Shown in pieces: positions 1 to 19,489 of a stretch of 20,749 bases of DNA. Source of the DNA: a virus (Duplodnaviria; Heunggongvirae; Uroviricota; Caudoviricetes); the IMG/VR virus record IMGVR_UViG_2671180890_000003. The stretch is one strand, 5' to 3'. The number at the start of each line of letters is the position of its first letter. Within the stretch, counting starts at the first letter, position 1. The translations under genes were made by a program, and so were the position numbers. The notes beneath the pieces were generated by a model that saw only the letters and a program-made list of their open reading frames with translations, made no database searches and was not told the DNA's origin.

Positions 1-402
1 ATGCGTAGCGCCGCTGTAATTAACAACGGCCTACGGAGATATGTCGCTTACTCGATATTGAATCTGTTTGTAGAGTATTGGCTTCAATGCCGCATTGTAG
101 CTGGTTTCTTCCTAATGCGATTTTTGATTATGTACACCCTTATGTACACGGTTTTTTCGGGTGCTTTGGTCAGAAGCCATTGTCTACATCCCTCAGGATC
201 GAGGTGTGTAACCATGTTCAGGCTTGTTGTCCTGCGCGCGCGTATTGCTCGTGAAATTGCTGTACCCAATAGTGATGTCCGAAAAAACCTCCGTTCTCAC
301 ATGAAACAGCCATATGCAACTGGTAACTGAACAGACTGGTAGACCGTTCGTTCAGTAAATACCTGATATTTTCGCCAACGAGAAATTGCGTTGGCTGGCA
401 GG

Positions 403-1582: not shown

Positions 1583-1960
1583 TTAGACGTGCTTGGAGAA
1601 CAGGTAGCGTGCCATCACTAAAACAATGCCAAAGACTTCAGCGAGGGTTCCCCCCATAAATAGGTTTATAACGAAATCACTAAAATGGAGCAGTTTTGCT
1701 CCAATAAGGACAAAAATCCCATTCATAACTAATAGCTGGCCTATCAGAATGCCGATAAACCACCGAGCAAACATTTTTTTCAGTTTTGTGTCTGTTTTTA
1801 AATCTTTTGTTTTTGCACGCTGATGGGCTTTGGCTGGATCCTCATCATTTAGATGTGTGAGGGTTTTTGCTGATGGTGATGAGCCAGAGGCTGGTTCACC
1901 TCTGGCTTGTCTTGCCGCTTGCTTTAGTTTTTCAGATATAGCGTAAGATCTAGACGTCAT
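1583..1960 (-). CDS. Small membrane protein (125 aa): hydrophilic charged N-terminal ~60 aa then two predicted transmembrane helices
   Basis: Track ORF. Start lies 3 nt after the stop of the upstream peptidase gene (translational coupling). Hydrophobic stretches WFIGILIGQLLVMNGIFVLIGAKLL and FVINLFMGGTLAEVFGIVLVMARYL. Confidence 0.55.
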   Translation of the reverse strand: MTSRSYAISEKLKQAARQARGEPASGSSPSAKTLTHLNDEDPAKAHQRAKTKDLKTDTKLKKMFARWFIGILIGQLLVMNGIFVLIGAKLLHFSDFVINLFMGGTLAEVFGIVLVMARYLFSKHV

Positions 1961-1963
1961 TAC

Positions 1964-2446
1964 TCATCGAAGCCCTAAATTCTTTAGGCGATAACGTATA
2001 GCATCATCGGATACACCAAAATAGGAAGCCATCATTACTGGTGCATATCCTGCATTGTTGAGGCGTCGAACCTCTTTTTCTGGCATGAGAAGACATGCTG
2101 CAAAGTTATTGGCGAATATTTCTTCGCTGTCTACACCTTGGCTTGCCAGTTTTCCGCGGTAATCAACAAACTCATATTCAAGTGGCTGACCGTTCTCAGT
2201 TCGTTTGACGTAATGCCCTAACTCATGCGCACACGTAAATCGTTTGCGCACGTTACTATCATTACGATTGAGTATGATTACTGGATCTTGTTCTGGCTCT
2301 TTCAGCAATGCGCCTGAAACATCATCATCAAGCGTGGTTTCAACAACATCCAACCCTAACTCATTGGCAATCCATACTGGATCAACCGGGAATTTCCTAT
2401 CGCCCCAGATATCTTTCAAGAGGGCATGTGCAGATGTATTCGACAT
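1964..2446 (-). CDS. ImmA/IrrE-family (DUF955-like) Zn-metallopeptidase, no fused HTH domain (160 aa from ATG 2446)
   Basis: HEXXH motif in RKRFTCAHELGHYV. ATG at 2446 is preceded by AAGGAGG at the right spacing; the track ORF begins 2 codons earlier at a GTG (2452). Confidence 0.7.
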   Translation of the reverse strand: MSNTSAHALLKDIWGDRKFPVDPVWIANELGLDVVETTLDDDVSGALLKEPEQDPVIILNRNDSNVRKRFTCAHELGHYVKRTENGQPLEYEFVDYRGKLASQGVDSEEIFANNFAACLLMPEKEVRRLNNAGYAPVMMASYFGVSDDAIRYRLKNLGLR

Positions 2447-2627
2447 GTTCACCTCCTTTGATTATGGTTAAATAGTCGAAATTTTCACCACTTCCCTTGT
2501 GGATATATTTACATATAAAAGGTAACTAGTCACTAACCAACACAAATCTTTTTGAAGACAGATGGGGGGTGTTGAACGGTTTTTAAATGATTTCTTTGAT
2601 TTTTAACAGCAATAAGGAGCATTTTTA

Positions 2628-2681
2628 ATGAAATTAGACGTTGATAATAACTTTTTGAGCAATCTTTACATATCATGGTAG
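2628..2681 (+). CDS. 17-codon micro-ORF (MKLDVDNNFLSNLYISW) with a consensus Shine-Dalgarno
   Basis: AAGGAG 8 nt upstream of ATG 2628; stop TAG 2679-2681. Too short to judge as coding; possible leader peptide or chance. Confidence 0.2.
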   Translation: MKLDVDNNFLSNLYISW

Positions 2682-2905
2682 CCTTCTATGCTGTTTTTCC
2701 AACTAAAAGATTGGCACATTTATCCGCTGGTAGTGGCGTTTTTTCGCCGCCAGCGCCTCTCTGGTTCCATTCCTTACATCTGTTCAAATTCAGCAACCCT
2801 TGCCGCGATCTTGCCGTTATCGAGAAGCTCTTTCGCTTTTCGGTTAATACTATCGGTCTTCATATTGCCAGCAGCATACGCCATCCGATAATTTCGATGC
2901 TACGC

Positions 2906-3280
2906 GCGCGTACTTGTCGCAAAATATCAGGCAAAGGCCAGATTCAGAAAGTCGTGATAACCACCAGCACAACATGAGAGGTCATGTAACGCGATTTATC
3001 ACACCAGATACATGTGATTGGTGTACCCGCATAAAACATCGTCATAGCGCGTCCTGTGCGCATATACGCCGATAATCAACACATCACCACCACTCTGTCT
3101 TATGTAGAGAACAGTTTTATGGTGCTCCCCGCCATCGTGTGCGTACTGGTCGGACGCAGTTGCAAAAAATTTTGCAACTGATACCCCTCGCGCGCGTACT
3201 GGTCACGAAATTGGTGTTTTGCTGTGGCAGTGATATCAGAAAAATCTTCCTGTTTCACATAAAGCGGATATGCGCGTACT
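2906..3280. repeat. Dispersed short repeats GCGCGTACT(GGTC) at 2906, 3141, 3192 and 3272 (variant at 3047) plus inverted repeat AGTTGCAAAA-aa-TTTTGCAACT at 3158-3179
   Basis: Read directly from the sequence. Region 2460-3418 has no convincing ORF on either strand. Spacing is irregular and units are short, so this is not CRISPR-like. Confidence 0.5.
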
Positions 3281-3384
3281 GTAACGGCCCCATCAACTGG
3301 GAGCGGATTTGAGCCCCGAATGTGTAGGCAATGTCACTTAACGTTTGTCGCATACCTTCCAGAAAAAGCGATTCATGAATAATA

Positions 3385-3420
3385 GGGGCATGAATGCCCG
3401 GCGTACCGGGCTTATTAGTT
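3385..3420. terminator. Two overlapping GC-rich hairpins (GGGCAT/ATGCCC and GCCCGG/CCGGGC) with T-rich flanks; candidate intrinsic terminator just downstream of the lipoprotein gene
   Basis: Hairpins at 3386-3399 and 3396-3411. T-rich TTATTAGTT follows on the plus strand and CTATTATT on the minus strand; the T-tract is imperfect. Confidence 0.35.
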
Positions 3421-4117
3421 AATTTGGTGCTTTAGGGTCAACATTAAAAGTTATATCACCTTCTGTATTTTTCCCGGCATAGCTAGCGGCTATTCTCGCC
3501 AACCCTTTGTAATCAGCAATTCCATCAGACTGTTGCGAGACGACTGAGCTACCAACTTTCCATAACATATTAATCTGCCGATTATTGAGATAAGCCTTGG
3601 CATCAAACGACTGGAGTATCACCCCTGCGCCGTAGAACGTGTCCGTCACAGTTGTGTTATACGCGCCAGTAATTCCATAAGTAGGCGTATAAACTGTTGT
3701 TGCCGTTCCAGTGGTATTAGCTGTACCGTAGCCACCACCATAACTATTGAACGTGGTGTTCGAGTTTCCGTACGTTGTTGCTGAGCTCACACCAGTTTGC
3801 CCGTATATTGGGATGGTTACATTACGAGTATTTGAAATGGCCCCGCTTCTCAAAAAGTTCAAGAGAATTACCTGGTCAGCCAATTTTTCATCTTTAACTT
3901 GTGTATATCCTTGGCTTGATAAACTGGCGGCTACTACCGTAGCTATTTGAGTGTATTCAATCTGTTTGGTGTTCCAAAGTTCTTGGCTTGCGGGGATGAT
4001 CAAGAACTTCTTACCGACAGATTGCCCGGAAGATAAAGCATTGACCGTTACTAACGGTTTTTGTACGCATCCAGCCAATAATGACAGGGATAATATTAAA
4101 AGAAGATTTTTAATCAT
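3419..4117 (-). CDS. Lipoprotein (232 aa) with Gly/Thr/Tyr/Asn-rich central low-complexity region
   Basis: Signal peptide with lipobox LLAGC (MIKNLLLILSLSLLAGC). AGGTGAG SD upstream of ATG 4117. Possible own sigma70-like promoter (TTACAT...TAATTT) in the 150-bp gap upstream. Lower GC than the upstream module. Confidence 0.7.
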   Translation of the reverse strand: MIKNLLLILSLSLLAGCVQKPLVTVNALSSGQSVGKKFLIIPASQELWNTKQIEYTQIATVVAASLSSQGYTQVKDEKLADQVILLNFLRSGAISNTRNVTIPIYGQTGVSSATTYGNSNTTFNSYGGGYGTANTTGTATTVYTPTYGITGAYNTTVTDTFYGAGVILQSFDAKAYLNNRQINMLWKVGSSVVSQQSDGIADYKGLARIAASYAGKNTEGDITFNVDPKAPN

Positions 4118-4267
4118 GATAATCTCACCTAAGAATTGCGTGGTTATAAATTATCATCACTGTAAGCGAATGTAAGCCACAGGCTCGTAATGTGATATGG
4201 AATTTTGATAGTTGGCTCAATATCAGTATGCCGTCCTTGGCTATTATGGTTTTGTTAGTTAGAGCGT

Positions 4268-6988
4268 CTATTCCCATTCGCTAACATCTTTCATGCCACT
4301 GAGGGTAGCTACAATCCCGGCCCTTGTCAGTTTCACGAATTCTTCAGCCCCAACGGCATCACGAATTGCTTTCATGGCAATTTTATTGGCCGAAAATCGT
4401 TTCTCTGCTGCGGCGATCGCTGCTGGTGATGCCCCTGCGCGCACTGCTTTTGTAGCTTCCTGAACGGCTTTCTCTATCGCATATCGACCACTTCTTGTCG
4501 CCCCAATCTTAGCCACAGCATTTCTTAGCGCGCCACCAGCAACCAAACCACTAATCGAACCAATTACACCACCGCCAAAGCCTCCAGCGATCGCACCTGA
4601 CTGTTGAACACCGTTCATAATCACGCCGACGATCTTTGGAAGGCCTGAATCGAGCGTTTTGAGAGCCTCAGTTGTTCTTCCCGTGCGCTCTACGTATCGC
4701 TGCGGTCTGGTACTGGCTTTAGCGAGTACACCGAACTCTTTCATCATTCTACCGAGATCTGGCGCATGACGACTGATGGCGTTTACATTCTGCTGGGTCA
4801 TGAGCTTGGCAAAATACTGGATACCTGACTCTTCACCGATTCCTCCCTTCTCTCCCTGCGCCACAGCATGCTGAAGAATAGATGCTATTGCAGGTTGGCG
4901 TTCTGCTTCCGGCAGCGCGGAGATAAGACGGTGAAAAGCTCCCGTTCCAGTGTTTGCGGATGCCTTAAGCGTATCGGCACCTTTTCTTACCATAGCGTCT
5001 GATGCGAGATCTCGACCAAAAACAGATTCGGCATTTTGTTTGGCGATAATGTAACTTTTAGAGAGATCGTTAGCTTTCTGCCATTCTGTGAGGAAGTTTC
5101 CTTTTTCAGCCATGATGCGCATGTCATCAGTGATAGCTCTGCGCATTTCTCCGGCAATCCGGGCGGCATTGGCCTTACCTGCCCGGGTGTTTGCTTGTTC
5201 AGCATCAGCAAACTTAGCACGCCATGCCTTCATCCCGTCGAAGGTTATGCCGCCACCTTGGTTGTTGGCAGCCTGAAACTGTTTCATCTCCGGGCTGAGT
5301 GGAACATTGGCTGCTTTTTCTGCTTGGACGACAGCCATTCCATTACTCATTTTCATCCTTTCGCGTGGCATCGTGCTTCGCAGTTCTGCCCATGCCATAT
5401 TCTCTGCTGTTTTCATATCACTGAGGCTCGCGATGATGCGCTCTTTAATTGCTGCGCTTTTTTCTGATGCGCTTCCAGACTCAGCACCGAAATCAGACAA
5501 CTGCTTATTCAACTTTGAGGATATTTCATTGAAGGCCGTAAGGTGAGCATCCTGAACATTCCCAGGAGTTGATGCCAGAACACCTTCTGCTTGGGCAATT
5601 CCACGACTACCTGAGCGCATTCCAGGCGTCAGGGTGTTGATATTAATACCAGTGATTTTCGCCGCCTTAGCGACATCATCTCTGACGTTTGATGCCTGCG
5701 ATGCGATATGCTCTCGGCCTACGGCAGAACGCGCTGCTTTCGATACATCATTGGCGGTTTCCAGAGTATTTGCTGCCCCTAACACATGGCCTGATTGATT
5801 TGTATTACTCCGCAATACATCTCGCATTACGTCACTGGCTGTCTGTCCGCTCTTTATTAAAGCGCGTGCTCCTAGCGATCCTGCTAGGCCAATACCTGTC
5901 TCTTTTGCTAGGTCTTCTGGGCTGATCTGCCCGTTCTTTTGGGCGTTCACCAATGTACCTGGCAGGTTTTCTGCCAACATACTAGCCACCTTTGTGGCCG
6001 CACGTTCAGCACGTGGAGCGTTGGCAACTGAAGAAGCTGCGGTAGCTGCCTTTCCTGCACCTAATCCTGTAATAAGGTAAGGTGCTAGCTGCTCACCAGC
6101 CTGCGCGTATGGATCTGTAGGTTGGTCTACTGGGCGAAAGACTGGTGATATGGGCGTGTATGTGCCATCACCCACACCAAGCTTCTGAGCTGCCCATGCT
6201 CCGGCTGATTGCGCCGCATTGACTACCCCCACGCCTGCGTCCATTACATCAAACGGTATATTAGCAATCCCTCTGGCCATCTGCTCTGGCGCAGCTTTCA
6301 GTCCTGGCGAAAGATATTCCATCTCAGGATTAAGGTTAGACTTGGCTACTTGCTGCTGCGGTTCCCCGGCATTTTCATCGGCGAGAAACTGAGCTCTTTT
6401 CTGCTCCCATGAACTGGCTGTTGGTAGTCCTGCTTCTATGTTCTTAAATTGCTGACGTTTTGCTTCCCATGCAGAAATATCTCCCACCTGAGAGATTTCT
6501 TTATCAAGCTCTGAGTAGTCAGGCTGCTGAAGATTGCGATGTTGACTGGTTTGTGCAAACTGCAAGATTTCACTGTCATCAGGGATTATTCCGGCATCTG
6601 CAAATTTACTTACGTAATTAGCCGTTTCATCTGGCAGTGTAGATTTACCGTTTCTGACGGCATTAATACGAGCATAGCCAGAATTATACCCAGCCAATGC
6701 CATACCTATATCACCAAATCGCTTCATTCCTTTATTGAGATGGTTTGCTGCGATATCCATTTGCTTTTCAAATGGCAGTGAGCGCGGATCTGTTCCACGA
6801 TAACCAGCATCACTCATTACTGAGGGCATCAGTTGAGCAAATCCTCTAGCTCCTTTCGGTGACTCGGCACTTCCGTTACCACTAGATTCATTGCCAACTA
6901 ATGTTTCCATCGTCCCTGATGGGAAACCATATTTTTCATCGAGATGACGGGAATAGGCTTTCTGTTTTTCTGTCAGTTGTGCCATCAT
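4268..6988 (-). CDS. Large virion-type protein with N-terminal SLT lytic transglycosylase domain (about 906 aa); internal-virion/ejection protein-like (T7 gp16-type architecture) or tape-measure-like
   Basis: SLT signature ES...GARGFAQLMP...AGYNSGYARI in the first ~150 aa. The remainder is Ala/Gln/Ser-rich and helical, with a Gly-rich hydrophobic C-terminus. ATG 6988 forms an ATGA overlap with the upstream stop; the track start is 6994. Confidence 0.8.
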   Translation of the reverse strand: MMAQLTEKQKAYSRHLDEKYGFPSGTMETLVGNESSGNGSAESPKGARGFAQLMPSVMSDAGYRGTDPRSLPFEKQMDIAANHLNKGMKRFGDIGMALAGYNSGYARINAVRNGKSTLPDETANYVSKFADAGIIPDDSEILQFAQTSQHRNLQQPDYSELDKEISQVGDISAWEAKRQQFKNIEAGLPTASSWEQKRAQFLADENAGEPQQQVAKSNLNPEMEYLSPGLKAAPEQMARGIANIPFDVMDAGVGVVNAAQSAGAWAAQKLGVGDGTYTPISPVFRPVDQPTDPYAQAGEQLAPYLITGLGAGKAATAASSVANAPRAERAATKVASMLAENLPGTLVNAQKNGQISPEDLAKETGIGLAGSLGARALIKSGQTASDVMRDVLRSNTNQSGHVLGAANTLETANDVSKAARSAVGREHIASQASNVRDDVAKAAKITGININTLTPGMRSGSRGIAQAEGVLASTPGNVQDAHLTAFNEISSKLNKQLSDFGAESGSASEKSAAIKERIIASLSDMKTAENMAWAELRSTMPRERMKMSNGMAVVQAEKAANVPLSPEMKQFQAANNQGGGITFDGMKAWRAKFADAEQANTRAGKANAARIAGEMRRAITDDMRIMAEKGNFLTEWQKANDLSKSYIIAKQNAESVFGRDLASDAMVRKGADTLKASANTGTGAFHRLISALPEAERQPAIASILQHAVAQGEKGGIGEESGIQYFAKLMTQQNVNAISRHAPDLGRMMKEFGVLAKASTRPQRYVERTGRTTEALKTLDSGLPKIVGVIMNGVQQSGAIAGGFGGGVIGSISGLVAGGALRNAVAKIGATRSGRYAIEKAVQEATKAVRAGASPAAIAAAEKRFSANKIAMKAIRDAVGAEEFVKLTRAGIVATLSGMKDVSEWE

Positions 6989-8304
6989 TGCCATCCCTTA
7001 AGTTTTGCCTGATAGTAACTTTCCGGCAGATAGCCATGTGCGGTCACATAATCCTTAACCAGTGAAGGATCCTGCAACAGCATTTTGGTATCAGTTTCTT
7101 CGTCCTTAGATTTGGTTACAGGAATACCGAGCCCGGCAATCTGTCGTTTCTGCATTCGAATAATTACGTCCTGCGCTTTATTCAACTCTCGCAAAAATGC
7201 CTCATTGCTGGTTGCTGACTTAATGCCATTTTGAGATTGCATAAGGGCAGCCCTTTCCCCTTCGGTTGGGTTAGAGCCAAAAGTCCCTTTGAGGCTAGGC
7301 AGAATAACCTTTAGGTTGTATTCATCAGCTTTGGCGCGTAGGCTTCGTGTGTCTTCTGCTACATCAGGAAGGAATCCAAACCCCAGCGTCAGGGGGTTAT
7401 AGTTCTGCGAGCGGGTAACGGCCGAAGGATGTTTCCCTACAATTCCCGCCAGTTCATGACCCACTTCAAGCGCAGAGTTCAAGGAGTCGATGTTACCTGC
7501 AACAGTATTAATTTTATCGTTCATCTTCTCCACTTTCGCCTGCTGTATCTTGCTCAGTTCAGCATTGAGCTTGTCTCTCTCGATGTCATTTTGAGCACGT
7601 CCAAGTCGTGCTTTCAGAACCATTTCTCTCGTGCGTAGTTGGTTATCGGATAGGACTTTGAACTGCTCCATATCGAGACGTCGATTACCCTGTTCCGCAT
7701 TAACCTGAGCATTATATGCGGATGTATCTGCGTTCTGCTGTGCAATGCTCTGCCCTTGCTGCTTCTCTTGAACACTAAAGTAACTATTTGGATCAGCATG
7801 GAGGTGGATGAGGTCAGTGATTCTGTTGAATTCCTGTGGGTCATTCTGCCAAGACTGATAAACCTCTTCAGCAGGAAGACCAAATCGCTGTAATACTGGA
7901 TTTGCCTGCTGAATGGCCTTCTGCATGGTCAGTGGATCTCCAGTTTGTGACGCAAGACGCAGATTCATGGCAGCGTCAGCGGTCTGTCGATTTTGCTCAG
8001 CATCAATGAATCCCATCTGTTTTTGAGAATCAGCCATAAACTGGGGATACTGGGCCATTAACTTCTGCACGCCAACACGATCATTATTAGCTACCGCACT
8101 ACCCAACCGTGCCTGATATTCTTTTAACTGCTGGGAAATTTGCGCCTGCTGATTAATCTCAGCAACGCCTCTTAGCCCCTGTAGCGCCATTAAACCTACG
8201 TTTGGCTGCTGCTGATACTGCACAGGCTGAGGAACGGAAGAACGAGGAGCATTATCATTTTGCGGTGCCATGCTAGGCAGCCCGCCAAGTTGCCATGTCG
8301 CCAT
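6985..8304 (-). CDS. Gln-rich coiled-coil protein (439 aa); putative virion internal protein (gp15-like position)
   Basis: Track ORF. Start overlaps the upstream stop by 1 nt (TAATG) and the stop overlaps the downstream start: a translationally coupled block. Confidence 0.7.
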   Translation of the reverse strand: MATWQLGGLPSMAPQNDNAPRSSVPQPVQYQQQPNVGLMALQGLRGVAEINQQAQISQQLKEYQARLGSAVANNDRVGVQKLMAQYPQFMADSQKQMGFIDAEQNRQTADAAMNLRLASQTGDPLTMQKAIQQANPVLQRFGLPAEEVYQSWQNDPQEFNRITDLIHLHADPNSYFSVQEKQQGQSIAQQNADTSAYNAQVNAEQGNRRLDMEQFKVLSDNQLRTREMVLKARLGRAQNDIERDKLNAELSKIQQAKVEKMNDKINTVAGNIDSLNSALEVGHELAGIVGKHPSAVTRSQNYNPLTLGFGFLPDVAEDTRSLRAKADEYNLKVILPSLKGTFGSNPTEGERAALMQSQNGIKSATSNEAFLRELNKAQDVIIRMQKRQIAGLGIPVTKSKDEETDTKMLLQDPSLVKDYVTAHGYLPESYYQAKLKGWQ

Positions 8305-8981
8305 TAGAATCCAAGCCCCCCAACAAGACCAATAAGCCCACCACCAATAGCCCCGGCGACATTACCTATACCCGGAACAACGGAACCAAGTTGCGCACCC
8401 GCTAAAGCGCCTGATGCCGCCCCACCAATACCACGCGCAAGACTGGATGGCTGCTGCGCCTGACCTGCACGAATAGCGCCAAGCCCCTGCAAGAGTTGCC
8501 CGGTATTATTGGCGTAGTTTTGCCCTGCTGTTGCCTGCCCTGATGCCGCATTCATCCCGACATTTAGCAGGTTTCCATAATTTTGCATTTGCCCACTGAG
8601 CCAATTGTTATAAAGCATGGGCGCAATGGAAGATAACTGGTTACTGGTAGCTGTTGAGCCAAGCCCCCCGGTAGCTTCTGCTGAGACAAGGTTCTGATAA
8701 CGGGCCTGATCTGCCTGTGTTTTATATAAACCAGAACCAAAGAAATCATTCGCGGCTTTATTCTGCCCTTCCAGAGTCATCAGCCCTTGCAGTTGTTGTA
8801 AAGCAGGCAATCCGACTTCTGCATACGGCTTGAGATTATTCATCACCGTATTCCACTGCTCGCGCTGCAAATCAATTGCCTGCTGCTGGGCCTTCGCCTG
8901 AGCTTTAGAGGCACCACCATCACCGCCTTTTTCGTATACGGCACGATTGAGATGTTTATGAGCTATATGGGTAATTAACAT
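8304..8981 (-). CDS. Gly/Gln-rich protein (225 aa) with hydrophobic Gly-rich C-terminus GGLIGLVGGLGF; putative membrane-inserting virion protein (gp14-like position)
   Basis: Track ORF, coupled to its neighbours; composition suggests membrane association. Confidence 0.65.
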   Translation of the reverse strand: MLITHIAHKHLNRAVYEKGGDGGASKAQAKAQQQAIDLQREQWNTVMNNLKPYAEVGLPALQQLQGLMTLEGQNKAANDFFGSGLYKTQADQARYQNLVSAEATGGLGSTATSNQLSSIAPMLYNNWLSGQMQNYGNLLNVGMNAASGQATAGQNYANNTGQLLQGLGAIRAGQAQQPSSLARGIGGAASGALAGAQLGSVVPGIGNVAGAIGGGLIGLVGGLGF

Positions 8982-9436
8982 TCGCTGAATTCCTTATATT
9001 GTTGCCGAGTTAACTGATAAAGCGTTACGCCGACGGGTTTACCACATCTGATATAAGCATCATCAAGGTGACCAACACGGGTAGCGCCAAGCAAACGGAT
9101 AATTGCCCGTCCGTATTTCGTGGTGTCAGGAACCATAGTGATGCTATTAAGGAATGGTGAGTTTTCGAGAAGCCATTTGCAGAATAATCGATGCCCTTGC
9201 AGTGCATATTCGCCACGGAATCCGGGGTCGTACACCGCATGGCATTCAACAACGCTATGCCAGAAGTTACGCACTTCATGAACGCCAGCCAGCACCAATC
9301 CTTCGTAGATGCCGAGATATACCGCATCAGGCTTGATGTAGTACGTGTGCCCCGGCTCAACAATATTTTCGGTATTGGCAGGCTCGTTAAGAAAGGCCTG
9401 TAATCGCACCGGGTTATCAATAAATTTTAGTTCCAT
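8975..9436 (-). CDS. Hypothetical protein (153 aa), first gene of the ejection-like block (gp13-like position)
   Basis: Track ORF with ATG start; overlaps the downstream gene by 7 nt. No family recognised. Confidence 0.6.
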   Translation of the reverse strand: MELKFIDNPVRLQAFLNEPANTENIVEPGHTYYIKPDAVYLGIYEGLVLAGVHEVRNFWHSVVECHAVYDPGFRGEYALQGHRLFCKWLLENSPFLNSITMVPDTTKYGRAIIRLLGATRVGHLDDAYIRCGKPVGVTLYQLTRQQYKEFSEC

Positions 9437-9452
9437 GCGGTGCCATCCATTT

Positions 9453-9614
9453 TCACATACAGCCTGCCAGCGCCTTATCTATTAACCCTCGTGCAATTTC
9501 ATGCAGAGTTGGCGCTACTCCAATTCCTGATTTTTTACGCTGCTCTTCCTGAATTTTCTTTATCGCTTCCATTTGCTTCTCACTTATCAATACCGGCTTT
9601 ACTGAAATAGCCAT
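9453..9614 (-). CDS. Small putative ribbon-helix-helix regulator (53 aa, MAISVKPVLISEKQMEAIKK...)
   Basis: Below the track length cutoff. ATG 9614 is preceded by AAGGGGG SD; the stop is 16 nt upstream of the 153-aa gene. The strand-helix-helix pattern is my inference. Confidence 0.4.
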   Translation of the reverse strand: MAISVKPVLISEKQMEAIKKIQEEQRKKSGIGVAPTLHEIARGLIDKALAGCM

Positions 9615-9709
9615 AACGCCCCCTTAGAACTGTATAAAACAACAGTTATTATAGTTTCACAAATCGCAATATTCATCATCGTAATTGCAAAATATGAAAC
9701 AAATAGCAC

Positions 9710-9741
9710 AAAAAAATGCCACCGCTCAGTAGCTGGTGGCA
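9710..9741 (-). terminator. Intrinsic terminator for minus-strand transcripts: stem TGCCACC(GCT)/(AGC)GGTGGCA followed by T7 on the minus strand
   Basis: Plus strand shows A7 (9710-9716) then the hairpin 9717-9741. Ends the primase-side transcription unit before the ejection-like block. Confidence 0.6.
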
Positions 9742-9751
9742 TCGTTCTGTG

Positions 9752-9781
9752 TGTCAGGTTTTGACAGGTTTTTTATGGACT
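9752..9781. repeat. Copy A of hairpin + T6 + ATGGACT element (TGTCA-ggttt-TGACA, T-run 9769-9774, ATGGACT 9775-9781)
   Basis: TTTTTTATGGACTCYRAAAACT matches copy B at 20 of 22 positions. Contains a perfect TTGACA hexamer at 9761-9766. Confidence 0.5.
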
Positions 9782-10108
9782 CTAAAAACTATATTTATGG
9801 TATCGCATTACTCTTCACGGCAGGCGCTTTTCAGTTCTGCCCTTGCTTCTGGCTCCATTGGTAATTTGATTCGCGATCAGCTATGCGGATGGTTTGCTGA
9901 ACAGGCATAACAACATCTCAGAGGCTATTTTTTGAACTACGAAAATTTCGTAGGTCTCTCCTTCAAAAACGTCACGCCCTTGTACACTGGATTTTACAAA
10001 AGTCTCGTAAAACTCTTTCCTGTTCTGGGCTATGTGCCAAACCGCAGCGAATACCTCCGTCTGCCAGATGAGCAAAACATACCTTATAAAGAAAATCGCT
10101 GTTTTTGC

Positions 10109-10210
10109 TGTACCACCTGTACCACCATGTCACAAACCCTTGTGTGGCGCGGCCTGTAGGTGGTACAGGTGGGTAAAAATGACCTCTCCCCACCTGTACA
10201 GACCTGTACC
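10109..10210. repeat. Iteron cluster built on CCTGTAC/GTACAGG (TGTACCACC x2 tandem at 10109-10126; GGTGGTACAGGT at 10159-10170; CCTGTACAGACCTGTACC at 10193-10210)
   Basis: Read directly from the sequence; the same 12-mer family occurs in the 11230-11335 cluster. Candidate ori/crr-type binding sites for the adjacent primase. Confidence 0.75.
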
Positions 10211-10216
10211 ATTTAT

Positions 10217-10954
10217 TTAATTTTTACCCATAGCAGCACATAATCCCTTTTTTGAAATATTGAAAAATGCGTTCATTCTTCCCGCTGGCTTAACCTTGTA
10301 GCCGCTTGCCACCATCGCCGCAATAAATGCTCCGTTGGGGATATAGTGCGGGTGATCACTGTGCTGGTGGTTTATCTGGTTATATCGCTCCACTTCATGC
10401 TTCAACGTGTCAGATGTGGGGTTATCCTGCGGGAAGCTCTCAATCTGGGCATTACTCATCCCGTTGTCTCTGATCCATCTCAGGCAGCTTTTCGCCGATA
10501 CGATAAATGACGGGTTATCAAGCGGGTTTTCCCAGTCCGCATTCCGGTTGTGGAGCGCCAGTCCGTCAAGGTTAAATTGTGGGTATTCAGCGGTAATTAC
10601 TGTCACTGCGTGGCGGATTTCAGTCTCGTCACAACATGGCTCATCTCCCACACCAGCAGGGTAATAATCTGAACCACCGGGACTGATACAGCGTTTACCA
10701 CTGAAAGGCCATTGCTTCGCCATTTCGGGTGTTGAGTGATTACCGTCGCTCCGTTCGCGCTGTGCCTCTGTCCACTGGCTGGCATATTCAGTAAATGAAA
10801 CCCTTTGCCCCTGGCGCATCCAGTGCGCAATCATAATTAAAGTGCGTTCCAGACTTTGGATGTCGCCAGCATTCCCGCACTGTGTAGCGAAACTTTTTAA
10901 TTCTTCGCGCTCCGTTCTGGTCATTCCCTGCGGTATGCAATAGTTATTGTTCAT
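10217..10954 (-). CDS. Hypothetical Cys/His-rich protein (245 aa)
   Basis: Track ORF. ATG 10954 forms an ATGA overlap with the upstream gene; GAGAGG SD. No family recognised. Confidence 0.6.
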   Translation of the reverse strand: MNNNYCIPQGMTRTEREELKSFATQCGNAGDIQSLERTLIMIAHWMRQGQRVSFTEYASQWTEAQRERSDGNHSTPEMAKQWPFSGKRCISPGGSDYYPAGVGDEPCCDETEIRHAVTVITAEYPQFNLDGLALHNRNADWENPLDNPSFIVSAKSCLRWIRDNGMSNAQIESFPQDNPTSDTLKHEVERYNQINHQHSDHPHYIPNGAFIAAMVASGYKVKPAGRMNAFFNISKKGLCAAMGKN

Positions 10955-11187
10955 GTTTTACCTCTCTGTTTTACCTCTCTGATTTCTGCTGCCATATCTG
11001 TTGGCTCTATACAGCCGTCCCGACTTGCCACGCAGGGAATAATGATTTCAACGGTATCGCCGTCAATACACATTTCAACATTCGCCCATGCCGCAATGGG
11101 TAGCCAGTCTGAACGCCCCTCAAACCGTAGCTGCCAGCCAGAGGAAGAAGCTAACTGGCGCACTTTGTAAAATGGTGTGCTCATCAT
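10951..11187 (-). CDS. Hypothetical small protein (78 aa)
   Basis: ATG 11187 preceded by GAGAGGGAA SD. The 3' end contains a 13-bp tandem duplication (10955-10980) that also duplicates the SD of the next gene. Confidence 0.5.
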   Translation of the reverse strand: MMSTPFYKVRQLASSSGWQLRFEGRSDWLPIAAWANVEMCIDGDTVEIIIPCVASRDGCIEPTDMAAEIREVKQRGKT

Positions 11188-11229
11188 TGGTTGTTCCCTC
11201 TCAGCCAGCCAGAAGAAATGCGTTTGTTA

Positions 11230-11335
11230 ATGGTATAGGTGGTACAGGTCTGGTATAGGTAAGATATTGACCTGTACCACTATAACGCACTGTTTTTAAT
11301 ACTGAATTAGCAAAATGGTATAGGTGGTACAGGTA
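11230..11335. repeat. Iteron cluster: 19-mer TGGTATAGGTGGTACAGGT x2 (11231-11249, 11316-11334), half-copy TGGTATAGGT (11251-11260) and inverted CCTGTACCAC (11271-11280)
   Basis: Read directly from the sequence; sits in the 177-bp gap immediately downstream of the primase-helicase stop. Candidate replication origin. Confidence 0.8.
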
Positions 11336-11363
11336 AAAACGTTCTTCTTGTAAAAAGACTATA

Positions 11364-16083: not shown

Positions 16084-16231
16084 GTGGCAGCCTCCTTGTA
16101 CTGGGAATTCTTCCCACCACCGGAGCTGCGAAACTCGCTGGTGGTGGACTGAACAGAGTTCGCAGTACCGGCGTACAAGGAAACCGGCCAGCCTTTCGGC
16201 TGCCCTGTCCAGCCCACCATAATTTTGCAAG

Positions 16232-16285: not shown

Positions 16286-16307
16286 AAAAAAAGACGCTCG
16301 GCGCGTC
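16286..16307 (-). terminator. Intrinsic terminator for minus-strand transcripts: GACGC-tcggc-GCGTC hairpin followed by T7
   Basis: Plus strand A7 at 16286-16292 then hairpin 16293-16307; the stem is only 5 bp. Separates the regulatory operon from the primase operon. Confidence 0.5.
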
Positions 16308-16310
16308 ATG

Positions 16311-16745
16311 TGTCGCCTCGTACATTTCCGGGCTGCGAAACCCGGCACCCGTTTTATGAGGTGCCTTATAACCATAAACCGTGTTGCCGCATAACGGCAA
16401 GCTCTTTTTTATGGACTCCGAAAACTCACTATTGGAAGAACCAGAAGCACAGTACATCGCGCTCATTTCGTTAACGTCACGCGCGTGGACGAATGTTTTT
16501 GTGGAGTCACTACACGAGCGGAAGACATCATCTACGACCAGAAATTTTCTGGCGCAGCCGCTGACCTTCTCAATGCTAATATCATCGCCCGAGATTTCTG
16601 GTATGGTTAAGGCATCCGTTCCGACCACCAGCAAATGATAAACTTTGCTTGTATCTGCTGTATTAATGCCTGACTTTGCCGTCATATTTCTGGATTTTGG
16701 CGACATGCCAGCCAGTGAAAATGTCTTCTTCTGGACGGGTATCAT
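16311..16745 (-). CDS. ORF of unknown function with a strong start but unresolved 3' end (possible frameshifted or fused gene)
   Basis: ATG 16745 has a GGAGG SD and an ATGA overlap with the upstream gene. The frame has no stop until 15678 and runs through a terminator hairpin and a promoter-like region; the end coordinate is nominal. Confidence 0.3.
16384..16417. repeat. Copy B of hairpin + T6 + ATGGACT element (TTGCCG-cataa-CGGCAA, T-run 16405-16410, ATGGACT 16411-16417)
   Basis: Shares the 14-mer TTTTTTATGGACTC with copy A. On the plus strand it resembles an intrinsic terminator; it lies inside the minus-strand ORF that starts at 16745. Confidence 0.5.
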
Positions 16746-19396: not shown

Positions 19397-19489
19397 AGCG
19401 TAACCTTTCGCGCTGCCTTAAAGAGTGACCGGAACAGGCGGTAAGGCTTTCCGCTTTTCGCCCCGTCGGGCTAGTTCCGGTCTGTTCGG

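Follow-up and report, generated by a model that had tools for sequence, protein, structure and literature searches.

A lipoprotein gene behind the P22-type ejection block of a satellite-like island in Escherichia coli: a candidate envelope-level exclusion factor from a divergent DUF4136 branch

The DNA considered here is a stretch of 20,749 nucleotides (the window) from the IMG/VR virus record IMGVR_UViG_2671180890_000003 (Duplodnaviria; Heunggongvirae; Uroviricota; Caudoviricetes), and the gene in question is a 232-amino-acid lipoprotein gene at 3419-4117 on its minus strand, next to a P22-type block of DNA-ejection genes. The best reading of this gene, held at a probability of about 0.5, is that it encodes a candidate envelope-level exclusion factor directed against incoming phages. 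This role fits because the predicted fold matches ring-forming outer-membrane lipoproteins, including TraT; because a homologue with 62% identity in a Serratia prophage occupies the position of P22 sieA; and because several phage types have independently acquired homologues next to their DNA-delivery genes. Within a known domain family the protein represents a divergent branch that is still uncharacterised; it combines this membership with a TraT-like core fold, and its gene lies in a slot known for exclusion genes.

A lipoprotein gene under purifying selection

The initial annotation placed the gene at 3419-4267, without a strand, and described a lipoprotein gene right after an ejection-like block, with lower GC (guanine plus cytosine) content than the upstream module, a strong Shine-Dalgarno sequence, a core rich in glycine, threonine, tyrosine and asparagine, and a plausible promoter of its own. 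The flagged interval holds a single long open reading frame (ORF), which is real but confined to 3419-4117, and RefSeq lists it as hypothetical protein WP_000594596.1. Its features and those of its surroundings are as follows.

3419-4117, minus strand: lipoprotein coding sequence, 232 amino acids, stop codon included, from the ORF list and its translation
4067-4117, minus strand: signal peptide and lipobox, residues 1-17, MIKNLLLILSLSLLAGC, with Cys17 as the predicted lipidated residue and Val at +2
3626-3853, minus strand: uncharged region rich in glycine, threonine, tyrosine and asparagine, residues 89-164, for which the model gives a long beta-hairpin continuing strands beta3 and beta4
4124-4130, minus strand: Shine-Dalgarno sequence AGGTGAG, 6 nt before the ATG
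4118-4229, minus strand: leader of about 112 bp, aligned and conserved with the gene in related islands, with GCTTACA as a twofold direct repeat
4243-4270, minus strand: sigma-70-like site TAGACG-16-CATAAT, 9 of 12 positions, overlapping the end of gp16 and the sole upstream match on the coding strand
3396-3411, no strand assigned: hairpin of high GC content, GCCCGG-nnnn-CCGGGC, 8 nt beyond the stop codon, with a T-run on the plus strand only

Comparison with homologues that are 88-89% identical gives a ratio of nonsynonymous to synonymous substitution rates (dN/dS) of 0.04-0.06, which reflects strong purifying selection; the ORF is therefore a working protein-coding gene. Placement, composition and the ribosome-binding site agree with the first description: a spacer of 150 bp separates the gene from the P22-type genes that precede it on the same strand, its GC content is 42.5% against 49.1% in the ejection block (38% in the spacer), and a Shine-Dalgarno sequence is present, with GGTGAG kept in the related islands.

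The lipoprotein assignment also holds. The lipobox L-A-G-C at residues 14-17 is canonical and agrees with the pattern [LVI][ASTVI][GAS]C, Cys17 is kept in at least 90% of homologues, and a lipobox-like N-terminus occurs in 152 of the 184 family sequences. These signals firmly predict a Sec/Lsp-type lipoprotein. Under the E. coli +2 rule, lipoproteins of Enterobacteriaceae that lack aspartate at +2 are sorted to the outer membrane, and because the +2 residue here is valine, outer-membrane sorting is predicted. Four database entries for relatives (P0002, P0003, P0004 and P0010; 267-272 amino acids) carry an N-terminal extension of about 40 residues before the signal peptide; at L002-L005 10001-10120 the extension appears as a mis-called start, judged by the conserved Shine-Dalgarno sequence and ATG and by the 232-residue homologues.

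The separate promoter did not withstand analysis and was rejected as no better than chance. The upstream region contains two sigma-70-like sites, against 3.0 +/- 1.7 in shuffled sequences, and the 9-of-12 site falls where the spacer is not conserved and is not kept in L002-L004 or L014. No terminator-like site was found between gp16 and the lipoprotein gene in a scan of the spacer, so read-through from the ejection operon is equally possible. The conserved leader plausibly fits a cis-regulatory role, although it does not prove a promoter. A possible stem, GAUGAU/AUUAUC, lies near the start codon (4118-4160, minus strand), its AUUAUC arm placed between the Shine-Dalgarno sequence and AUG, with an RNA fold z of -1.76 that is not significant; in the related islands its 3' arm reads AUCGUC, and pairing is kept through G-U/G-C and U-A/U-G changes. 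The hairpin past the stop codon marks the end of a transcription unit at best, since on the minus strand it does not have the form of a canonical intrinsic terminator. As regards the promoter and terminator expected of a moron, promoter sites thus stand at chance level, the leader is conserved, and the post-stop hairpin lacks a U-run on the minus strand. No Rfam RNA was found in 3000-4300.

Beyond the gene, window positions 2453-3418 (about 970 bp) contain no RefSeq gene and no family match. A 23-nt motif, CGCGCGCGTACT.GTC...AAAT, occurs three times there, at 2903, 3136 and 3189, with a further copy close to the element's left end in L001; the repeats in this gap were otherwise unremarkable.

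The uncharged core is conserved and modelled as a hairpin

The initial annotation treated the core as a feature of composition. The composition itself is confirmed: residues 99-164 are 80% glycine, threonine, tyrosine, asparagine, serine and alanine with one charged residue, against 42% and 17% charged residues in the rest of the mature protein. Its interpretation changes, since the region proves to be the conserved structural heart of the family and its most conserved segment. All 15 invariant alignment columns lie within it (P103, G106, Q107, T108, G109, T115, G117, G127, T141, P145, T146, Y147, G148, T150 and G151), forming the motifs P103-x-x-G106-Q-T-G109 and P145-T-Y-G-I-T-G151, and 170 of the 184 family sequences contain GQTG. 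In a set of 153 sequences (median pairwise identity 33%), charged residues make up 1.6-1.9% of the hairpin against 21-23% of the flanks, and residues 103-152 are free of charge in 86 of them.

AlphaFold2 models the protein (predicted local distance difference test score, pLDDT, 86) as an alpha/beta core from which beta3 and beta4 run on as a hairpin of about 35 residues per strand (E82-124 and E132-172). A PF13590-positive member with 27% identity gives the same architecture and hairpin at pLDDT 88. A low-complexity or disordered linker is rejected, the region being the most conserved in the family and confidently modelled. In Foldseek searches, the hairpin resembles the pore-state stems of aerolysin, lysenin, epsilon toxin, CDTb, iota-Ib and anthrax PA (E about 1e-3 to 1e-2), a likeness that is geometric only.

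The faces of the hairpin were analysed with an assumed two-residue turn and with a strand register that was likewise assumed and not read from coordinates. In this register, invariant residues pair across the strands as Gly-Tyr and aromatic-Gly; one face is 68% serine, threonine, asparagine and glutamine, and the other is 32% aromatic or aliphatic, 34% glycine, alanine or proline, and 33% polar. The modelled pattern is suggestive of a barrel and inconclusive for membrane insertion.

A divergent member of the DUF4136 superfamily

Family searches with the window protein returned no significant match in Pfam, PHROGs (0 families at E <= 0.01) or NCBIfam, and 0 families in PADLOC-DB. Its score against PF13590 (DUF4136) is 14.2 bits (E = 0.062), below the gathering cut-off of 32.8, and against PF05818 (TraT) it is 12.9 bits (E = 0.091), below the cut-off of 31. 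Relatives supply the connection. A word-indexed homologue search gave 37 of them, the close ones in Enterobacteriaceae and Serratia and the distant ones carrying PF13590; when the aligned members were compared with Pfam at E <= 1, PF13590 matched 20 of the 29, with a best E-value of 1.3e-15. The lipoprotein matches PF13590-positive proteins at E = 4.7e-22 to 1e-9 and shares the invariant columns with them. These alignments place it as a divergent member of the DUF4136 superfamily. Membership in the TraT family was rejected, the score lying under the Pfam threshold and the helical hairpin of TraT being absent.

The superfamily is large and widespread. A profile search of 1.84 billion representative proteins retrieved 3,840 clusters at E <= 1e-3, with 648 at E <= 1e-30. 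A pattern scan of one genome per species found members in Desulfobulbus, Planctomycetota, Verrucomicrobiota, Nitrospirae, Chlamydiae, Bacteroidota, Campylobacterota, Leptospira and several proteobacterial classes, and some of those in other phyla occupy ordinary chromosomal neighbourhoods, for example between secA and addB. No homologue was detected by tblastn with two family members against 50,697 cultured phage genomes or in tblastn searches of 72,556 plasmids. A profile search of PDB sequences gave chance matches only, and Foldseek against the BFVD viral structures gave nothing at E <= 1e-3. Literature searches on the function of DUF4136, on lipoproteins after gene 16 and on PDB entry 4L8N returned nothing relevant.

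Structure comparison is more informative about the core, which matches the outer-membrane lipoproteins PelC (dodecamer, fold match value 10.5-10.8), TraT (decamer, 9.5), the DUF4136 protein BT2437 (9.0), CsgG (8.7) and LptE (about 7); TolB-N and LpoB match it as well. The matched proteins share a class of fold found in outer-membrane lipoproteins, and several of them are ring-forming. A profile alignment (hhalign) of the family with F-plasmid TraT, whose sequence was verified against PDB 9FS5, gives 86% probability over the N-terminal beta1-beta2-alpha-beta3 region.

Homologues recur beside DNA-delivery genes

The lipoprotein gene stands directly after gp16 in the window, in strain CRE1540 and in five further satellite-like islands. 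The related islands occupy other chromosomal sites and other Enterobacteriaceae, together with one IMG/VR contig. Their lipoproteins are 88-89% and their ejection proteins 71-87% identical to those of the window, while replication genes and distal cargo differ; across these islands the ejection module diverges in step with the lipoprotein gene. More distant homologues occupy the following positions.

62% identity: complete Serratia P22-like prophage, between gp16 and arc/tailspike, the P22 sieA slot
46% identity: lambda-like prophage, between gpK and gpJ
41% identity: myovirus, between the tail tube and tape measure genes
39-40% identity: a prophage of Serratia and viral contigs from IMG/VR, where it follows T7-gp16-like internal virion proteins and precedes the tailspike
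34% identity: viral contig from IMG/VR, where it follows two large virion proteins and precedes a tailspike
28-34% identity: small integrase islands, inside the island
About 30% identity: P2-like prophage, at the prophage end

In the Serratia prophage the lipoprotein is 62% identical, against 25-56% for the adjacent ejection proteins. All enterobacterial relatives lie in mobile elements beside DNA-delivery genes. The gene resembles a moron in its occurrence in five or more element architectures and in its lower GC content (42.5% against 49.1%). Its accessory status is supported: it stands beside DNA-delivery genes in several phage types and has been inserted independently. The comparisons identify it as an accessory gene that moves between temperate phages and satellite-like islands, ending a DNA-delivery block or lying inside one.

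Two further homologues were seen in island settings. One, in Vibrio fluvialis (L011 8536-10708), follows a gene for a 426-residue reverse transcriptase in an integrase/KilA-N/resolvase island, and the other, P0032 (L012 10001-16747), is at the end of a small int-AlpA-Toprim-primase island.

A capsid-less island with its own ejection genes

The window contains an integrative element of about 19.9 kb between dinD and yicC (window 127-20749; L001 16828-36745), bounded by 24-nt imperfect direct repeats, ATTATGTACACCCTTATGTACACG (window 127-150), and present in 75 of 5,426 complete E. coli genomes. It carries an integrase, AntA/B, Ash and Icd-like genes and a Zn-ribbon/Toprim/DUF5906 primase-helicase. 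Its principal features besides the lipoprotein gene are listed here.

576-863: PerC-family virulence regulator, from Pfam and PHROG matches
1583-2452, minus strand: ImmA/IrrE M78 peptidase (PADLOC best match capP, E = 4.9e-25) together with an overlapping predicted membrane protein
4268-9436, minus strand: P22-type ejection module, from Pfam and PHROG matches
4268-6994, minus strand: gp16, 908 amino acids, with an SLT domain (N-terminal lytic transglycosylase, residues 17-119)
6985-8304, minus strand: gp20
8304-8981, minus strand: gp7
8975-9436, minus strand: gp14 (DUF2824)
16137-16224, minus strand: C4 antisense RNA, 81 bits, Rfam, above the gathering threshold
16287-16364, minus strand: isrK, 69 bits, Rfam, above the gathering threshold
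19415-19481, minus strand: int-alpA RNA, 66 bits, Rfam, above the gathering threshold

The C4, isrK and int-alpA RNAs, together with the Icd-like, Ash and AntA/B genes, indicate a putative P1/P4-type antisense immunity module. The element's regulatory and replication backbone is P4-like, genes for capsid, portal, terminase and tail are all missing, and the layout is therefore satellite-like. Judged by gene content, the carrier is a capsid-less, satellite-like island of about 20 kb with its own P22-type ejection genes and not an ordinary prophage. A literature search on satellites that carry ejection proteins found no description of such an island, and the carrier is a more unusual object than the lipoprotein gene; interest in the latter rises if its link to the ejection proteins proves functional. 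The window gp16 is only 47-52% identical to gp16 of any cultured P22-like phage, aligning with CUS-3 and HK620 from about residue 177 only and with Dewey and Huey from residue 21.

The region between gp14 and the primase is mosaic (window 9437-11363 against L001 26316-26899). A 245-residue ORF at 10217-10954 is present in the window and absent from strain CRE1540, and the two primases are 86% identical over 44% of their length, compared with 99-100% for the ejection block and lipoprotein. Near the left end, the stop region of the M78 peptidase gene overlaps a predicted 125-residue membrane protein (phrog_5346), within 1583-2452 on the minus strand; the two genes may form a cargo or defence pair.

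Proposed role and alternatives

As an exclusion factor, the protein would be lipidated at Cys17 and, with valine at +2, sorted to the outer membrane. There it may assemble into a ring, by analogy with PelC (12-mer), TraT (10-mer) and CsgG (9-mer), and its hairpins could line up next to one another as a beta-barrel-like collar, either within the outer membrane or against it. Such a ring would hinder an incoming phage as it breaches the outer membrane or assembles its ejection-protein conduit, protecting the resident element; it would be the outer-membrane counterpart of the inner-membrane SieA of P22 and of TraT against conjugation. Transcription would probably occur with the ejection-gene operon, perhaps also from the gene's own leader.

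Several observations weigh against this role. The hairpin faces are weakly amphipathic and offer no classical lipid-facing surface. The protein matches no PADLOC, PHROGs or NCBIfam family, and since no homologue was found in the cultured phages and plasmids searched, it has no characterised relative. Because the family spans many diderm phyla, including plain chromosomal settings, its ancestral role was probably cellular. The site beside the ejection genes is, moreover, a general hotspot for accessory-gene insertion.

The envelope location would also suit a lysogenic-conversion factor, an outer-membrane lipoprotein that benefits the host by raising serum or complement resistance or envelope robustness. 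TraT, lambda Bor and Lom have such effects, and the TraT-like fold, the clinical and avian-pathogenic origin of the E. coli carriers, the PerC-family regulator in the neighbouring cargo and the non-phage chromosomal contexts of the wider family are all consistent with it. This account is nevertheless unlikely: in the enterobacterial clade the gene recurs beside the DNA-delivery genes of unrelated phage types, its divergence follows that of the ejection block rather than that of the variable cargo, and it has no PHROG or Pfam match to Bor/Iss or Lom. The same proximity to ejection genes could point to a late lytic function, in which the last gene of the ejection unit keeps progeny or competitors from ejecting DNA into the dying cell, debris or vesicles, as in the second role ascribed to T5 Llp. 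The strand shared with gp14-gp16, the lack of an intervening terminator-like site and of a convincing own promoter, and the hairpin 3' of the gene agree with this, but the low GC content and co-transferred leader point to an autonomous cassette, and in the Rouxiella and myovirus loci the gene sits amid tail genes, its neighbours in the myovirus being divergently oriented. Late in infection, time is also needed for a lipoprotein to mature and be transported by Lol, and a late function is accordingly a doubtful proposition.

Two further readings fare worse. If the hairpins of a CsgG-like ring formed a transmembrane beta-barrel, the protein might be a pore or channel serving export, release or lysis; each subunit, however, contributes one hairpin of weak amphipathicity, no partner gene such as csgE or csgF is present, a constitutive outer-membrane pore would be costly to a lysogen, and full prophages have their lysis genes elsewhere, so that a pore is very improbable. 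Scarcely more credit, if as much, can be given to hitch-hiking cargo, a gene whose DUF4136-type role is cellular and unconnected to phage biology and which was picked up along with the ejection block. An ancient family across many diderm phyla with partly housekeeping neighbourhoods would allow it, yet dN/dS stays at 0.04-0.06 inside mobile elements, insertions into at least five element architectures were independent, and in Serratia the lipoprotein is better conserved than the ejection proteins next to it. Two other candidates were discarded: a spanin or other lysis lipoprotein, for which size, fold and position are wrong and lysis genes of full prophages lie elsewhere, and a virion component, excluded because a Sec/Lol-exported lipoprotein cannot be packaged in the cytoplasm.

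Envelope-level exclusion thus remains the preferred reading, and a bolder form of it can be stated, though it is speculative and should be regarded as improbable. The lipoprotein would found a new outer-membrane exclusion system against podovirus ejection conduits, in which a TraT/CsgG-like ring with a long beta-barrel collar of conserved uncharged hairpins keeps the gp7/gp20/gp16-type proteins of incoming P22-like phages from assembling at the outer membrane or crossing it. It would be borne with matched ejection genes by undescribed capsid-less satellites that re-equip helper virions with ejection proteins of the satellite, and these proteins might be resistant to exclusion. Inner-membrane SieA is the only system whose block of DNA injection by short-tailed phages has been studied (PMC10883804). 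If the exclusion role is true, an outer-membrane factor would add a second layer at the sieA locus and open a way to study the passage of ejection proteins through the outer membrane. One branch of DUF4136, a family with thousands of members across diderm bacteria, would gain its first function, and the family would be linked structurally to TraT.

Comparison with known systems

Cor of phi80, N15 and T1 and Llp of T5 are phage lipoproteins encoded beside tail or receptor-binding genes that block entry at an outer-membrane receptor. They are much smaller than the window lipoprotein and act on FhuA, whereas the window lipoprotein matches no PHROG family; membership in the Cor, Llp or Bor families was not found, with 0 PHROG families at E <= 0.01 and no tblastn match in cultured phages. 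BT2437 (PDB 4F54), a DUF4136 protein, shares the fold and aligns over 114 residues, fewer than the core and hairpin together. In CsgG, subunit hairpins build a 36-stranded barrel (PMC4594475). CsgG and PelC belong to the curli and Pel polysaccharide export operons, respectively, whereas the lipoprotein has no such partners and no sequence-level relationship to them.

TraT (PF05818; PDB 9FS5, 9FSM and 9E2V) has a beta-sandwich core fold in common with the lipoprotein but differs in what is inserted there. In TraT, a helical hairpin after beta3 forms the barrel embedded in the outer membrane, and a separate beta-hairpin knits the decamer together (PMC11733297). The TraT insertion is thus an amphipathic helix pair (alpha3-alpha4), while at the same topological site the lipoprotein has its beta-hairpin with GQTG and PTYGITG. 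TraT serves surface exclusion in F-like plasmids; the lipoprotein has no copies among the 72,556 plasmids searched, its neighbours are phage or satellite genes, and no conjugation genes lie nearby.

SieA of P22 is a counterpart in position. Pfam and PHROG scans of the window protein returned no SieA-annotated family, and no direct comparison with the SieA sequence was made. In P22-like phages, the DNA-delivery conduit formed by gp20/gp16 is what SieA blocks (PMC10883804). It is an inner-membrane protein encoded on the opposite strand with its own mapped promoter, and the window protein is a lipoprotein and not polytopic. The slot itself is shared, directly after ejection gene 16 and, in P22, before mnt, arc and the tailspike gene.

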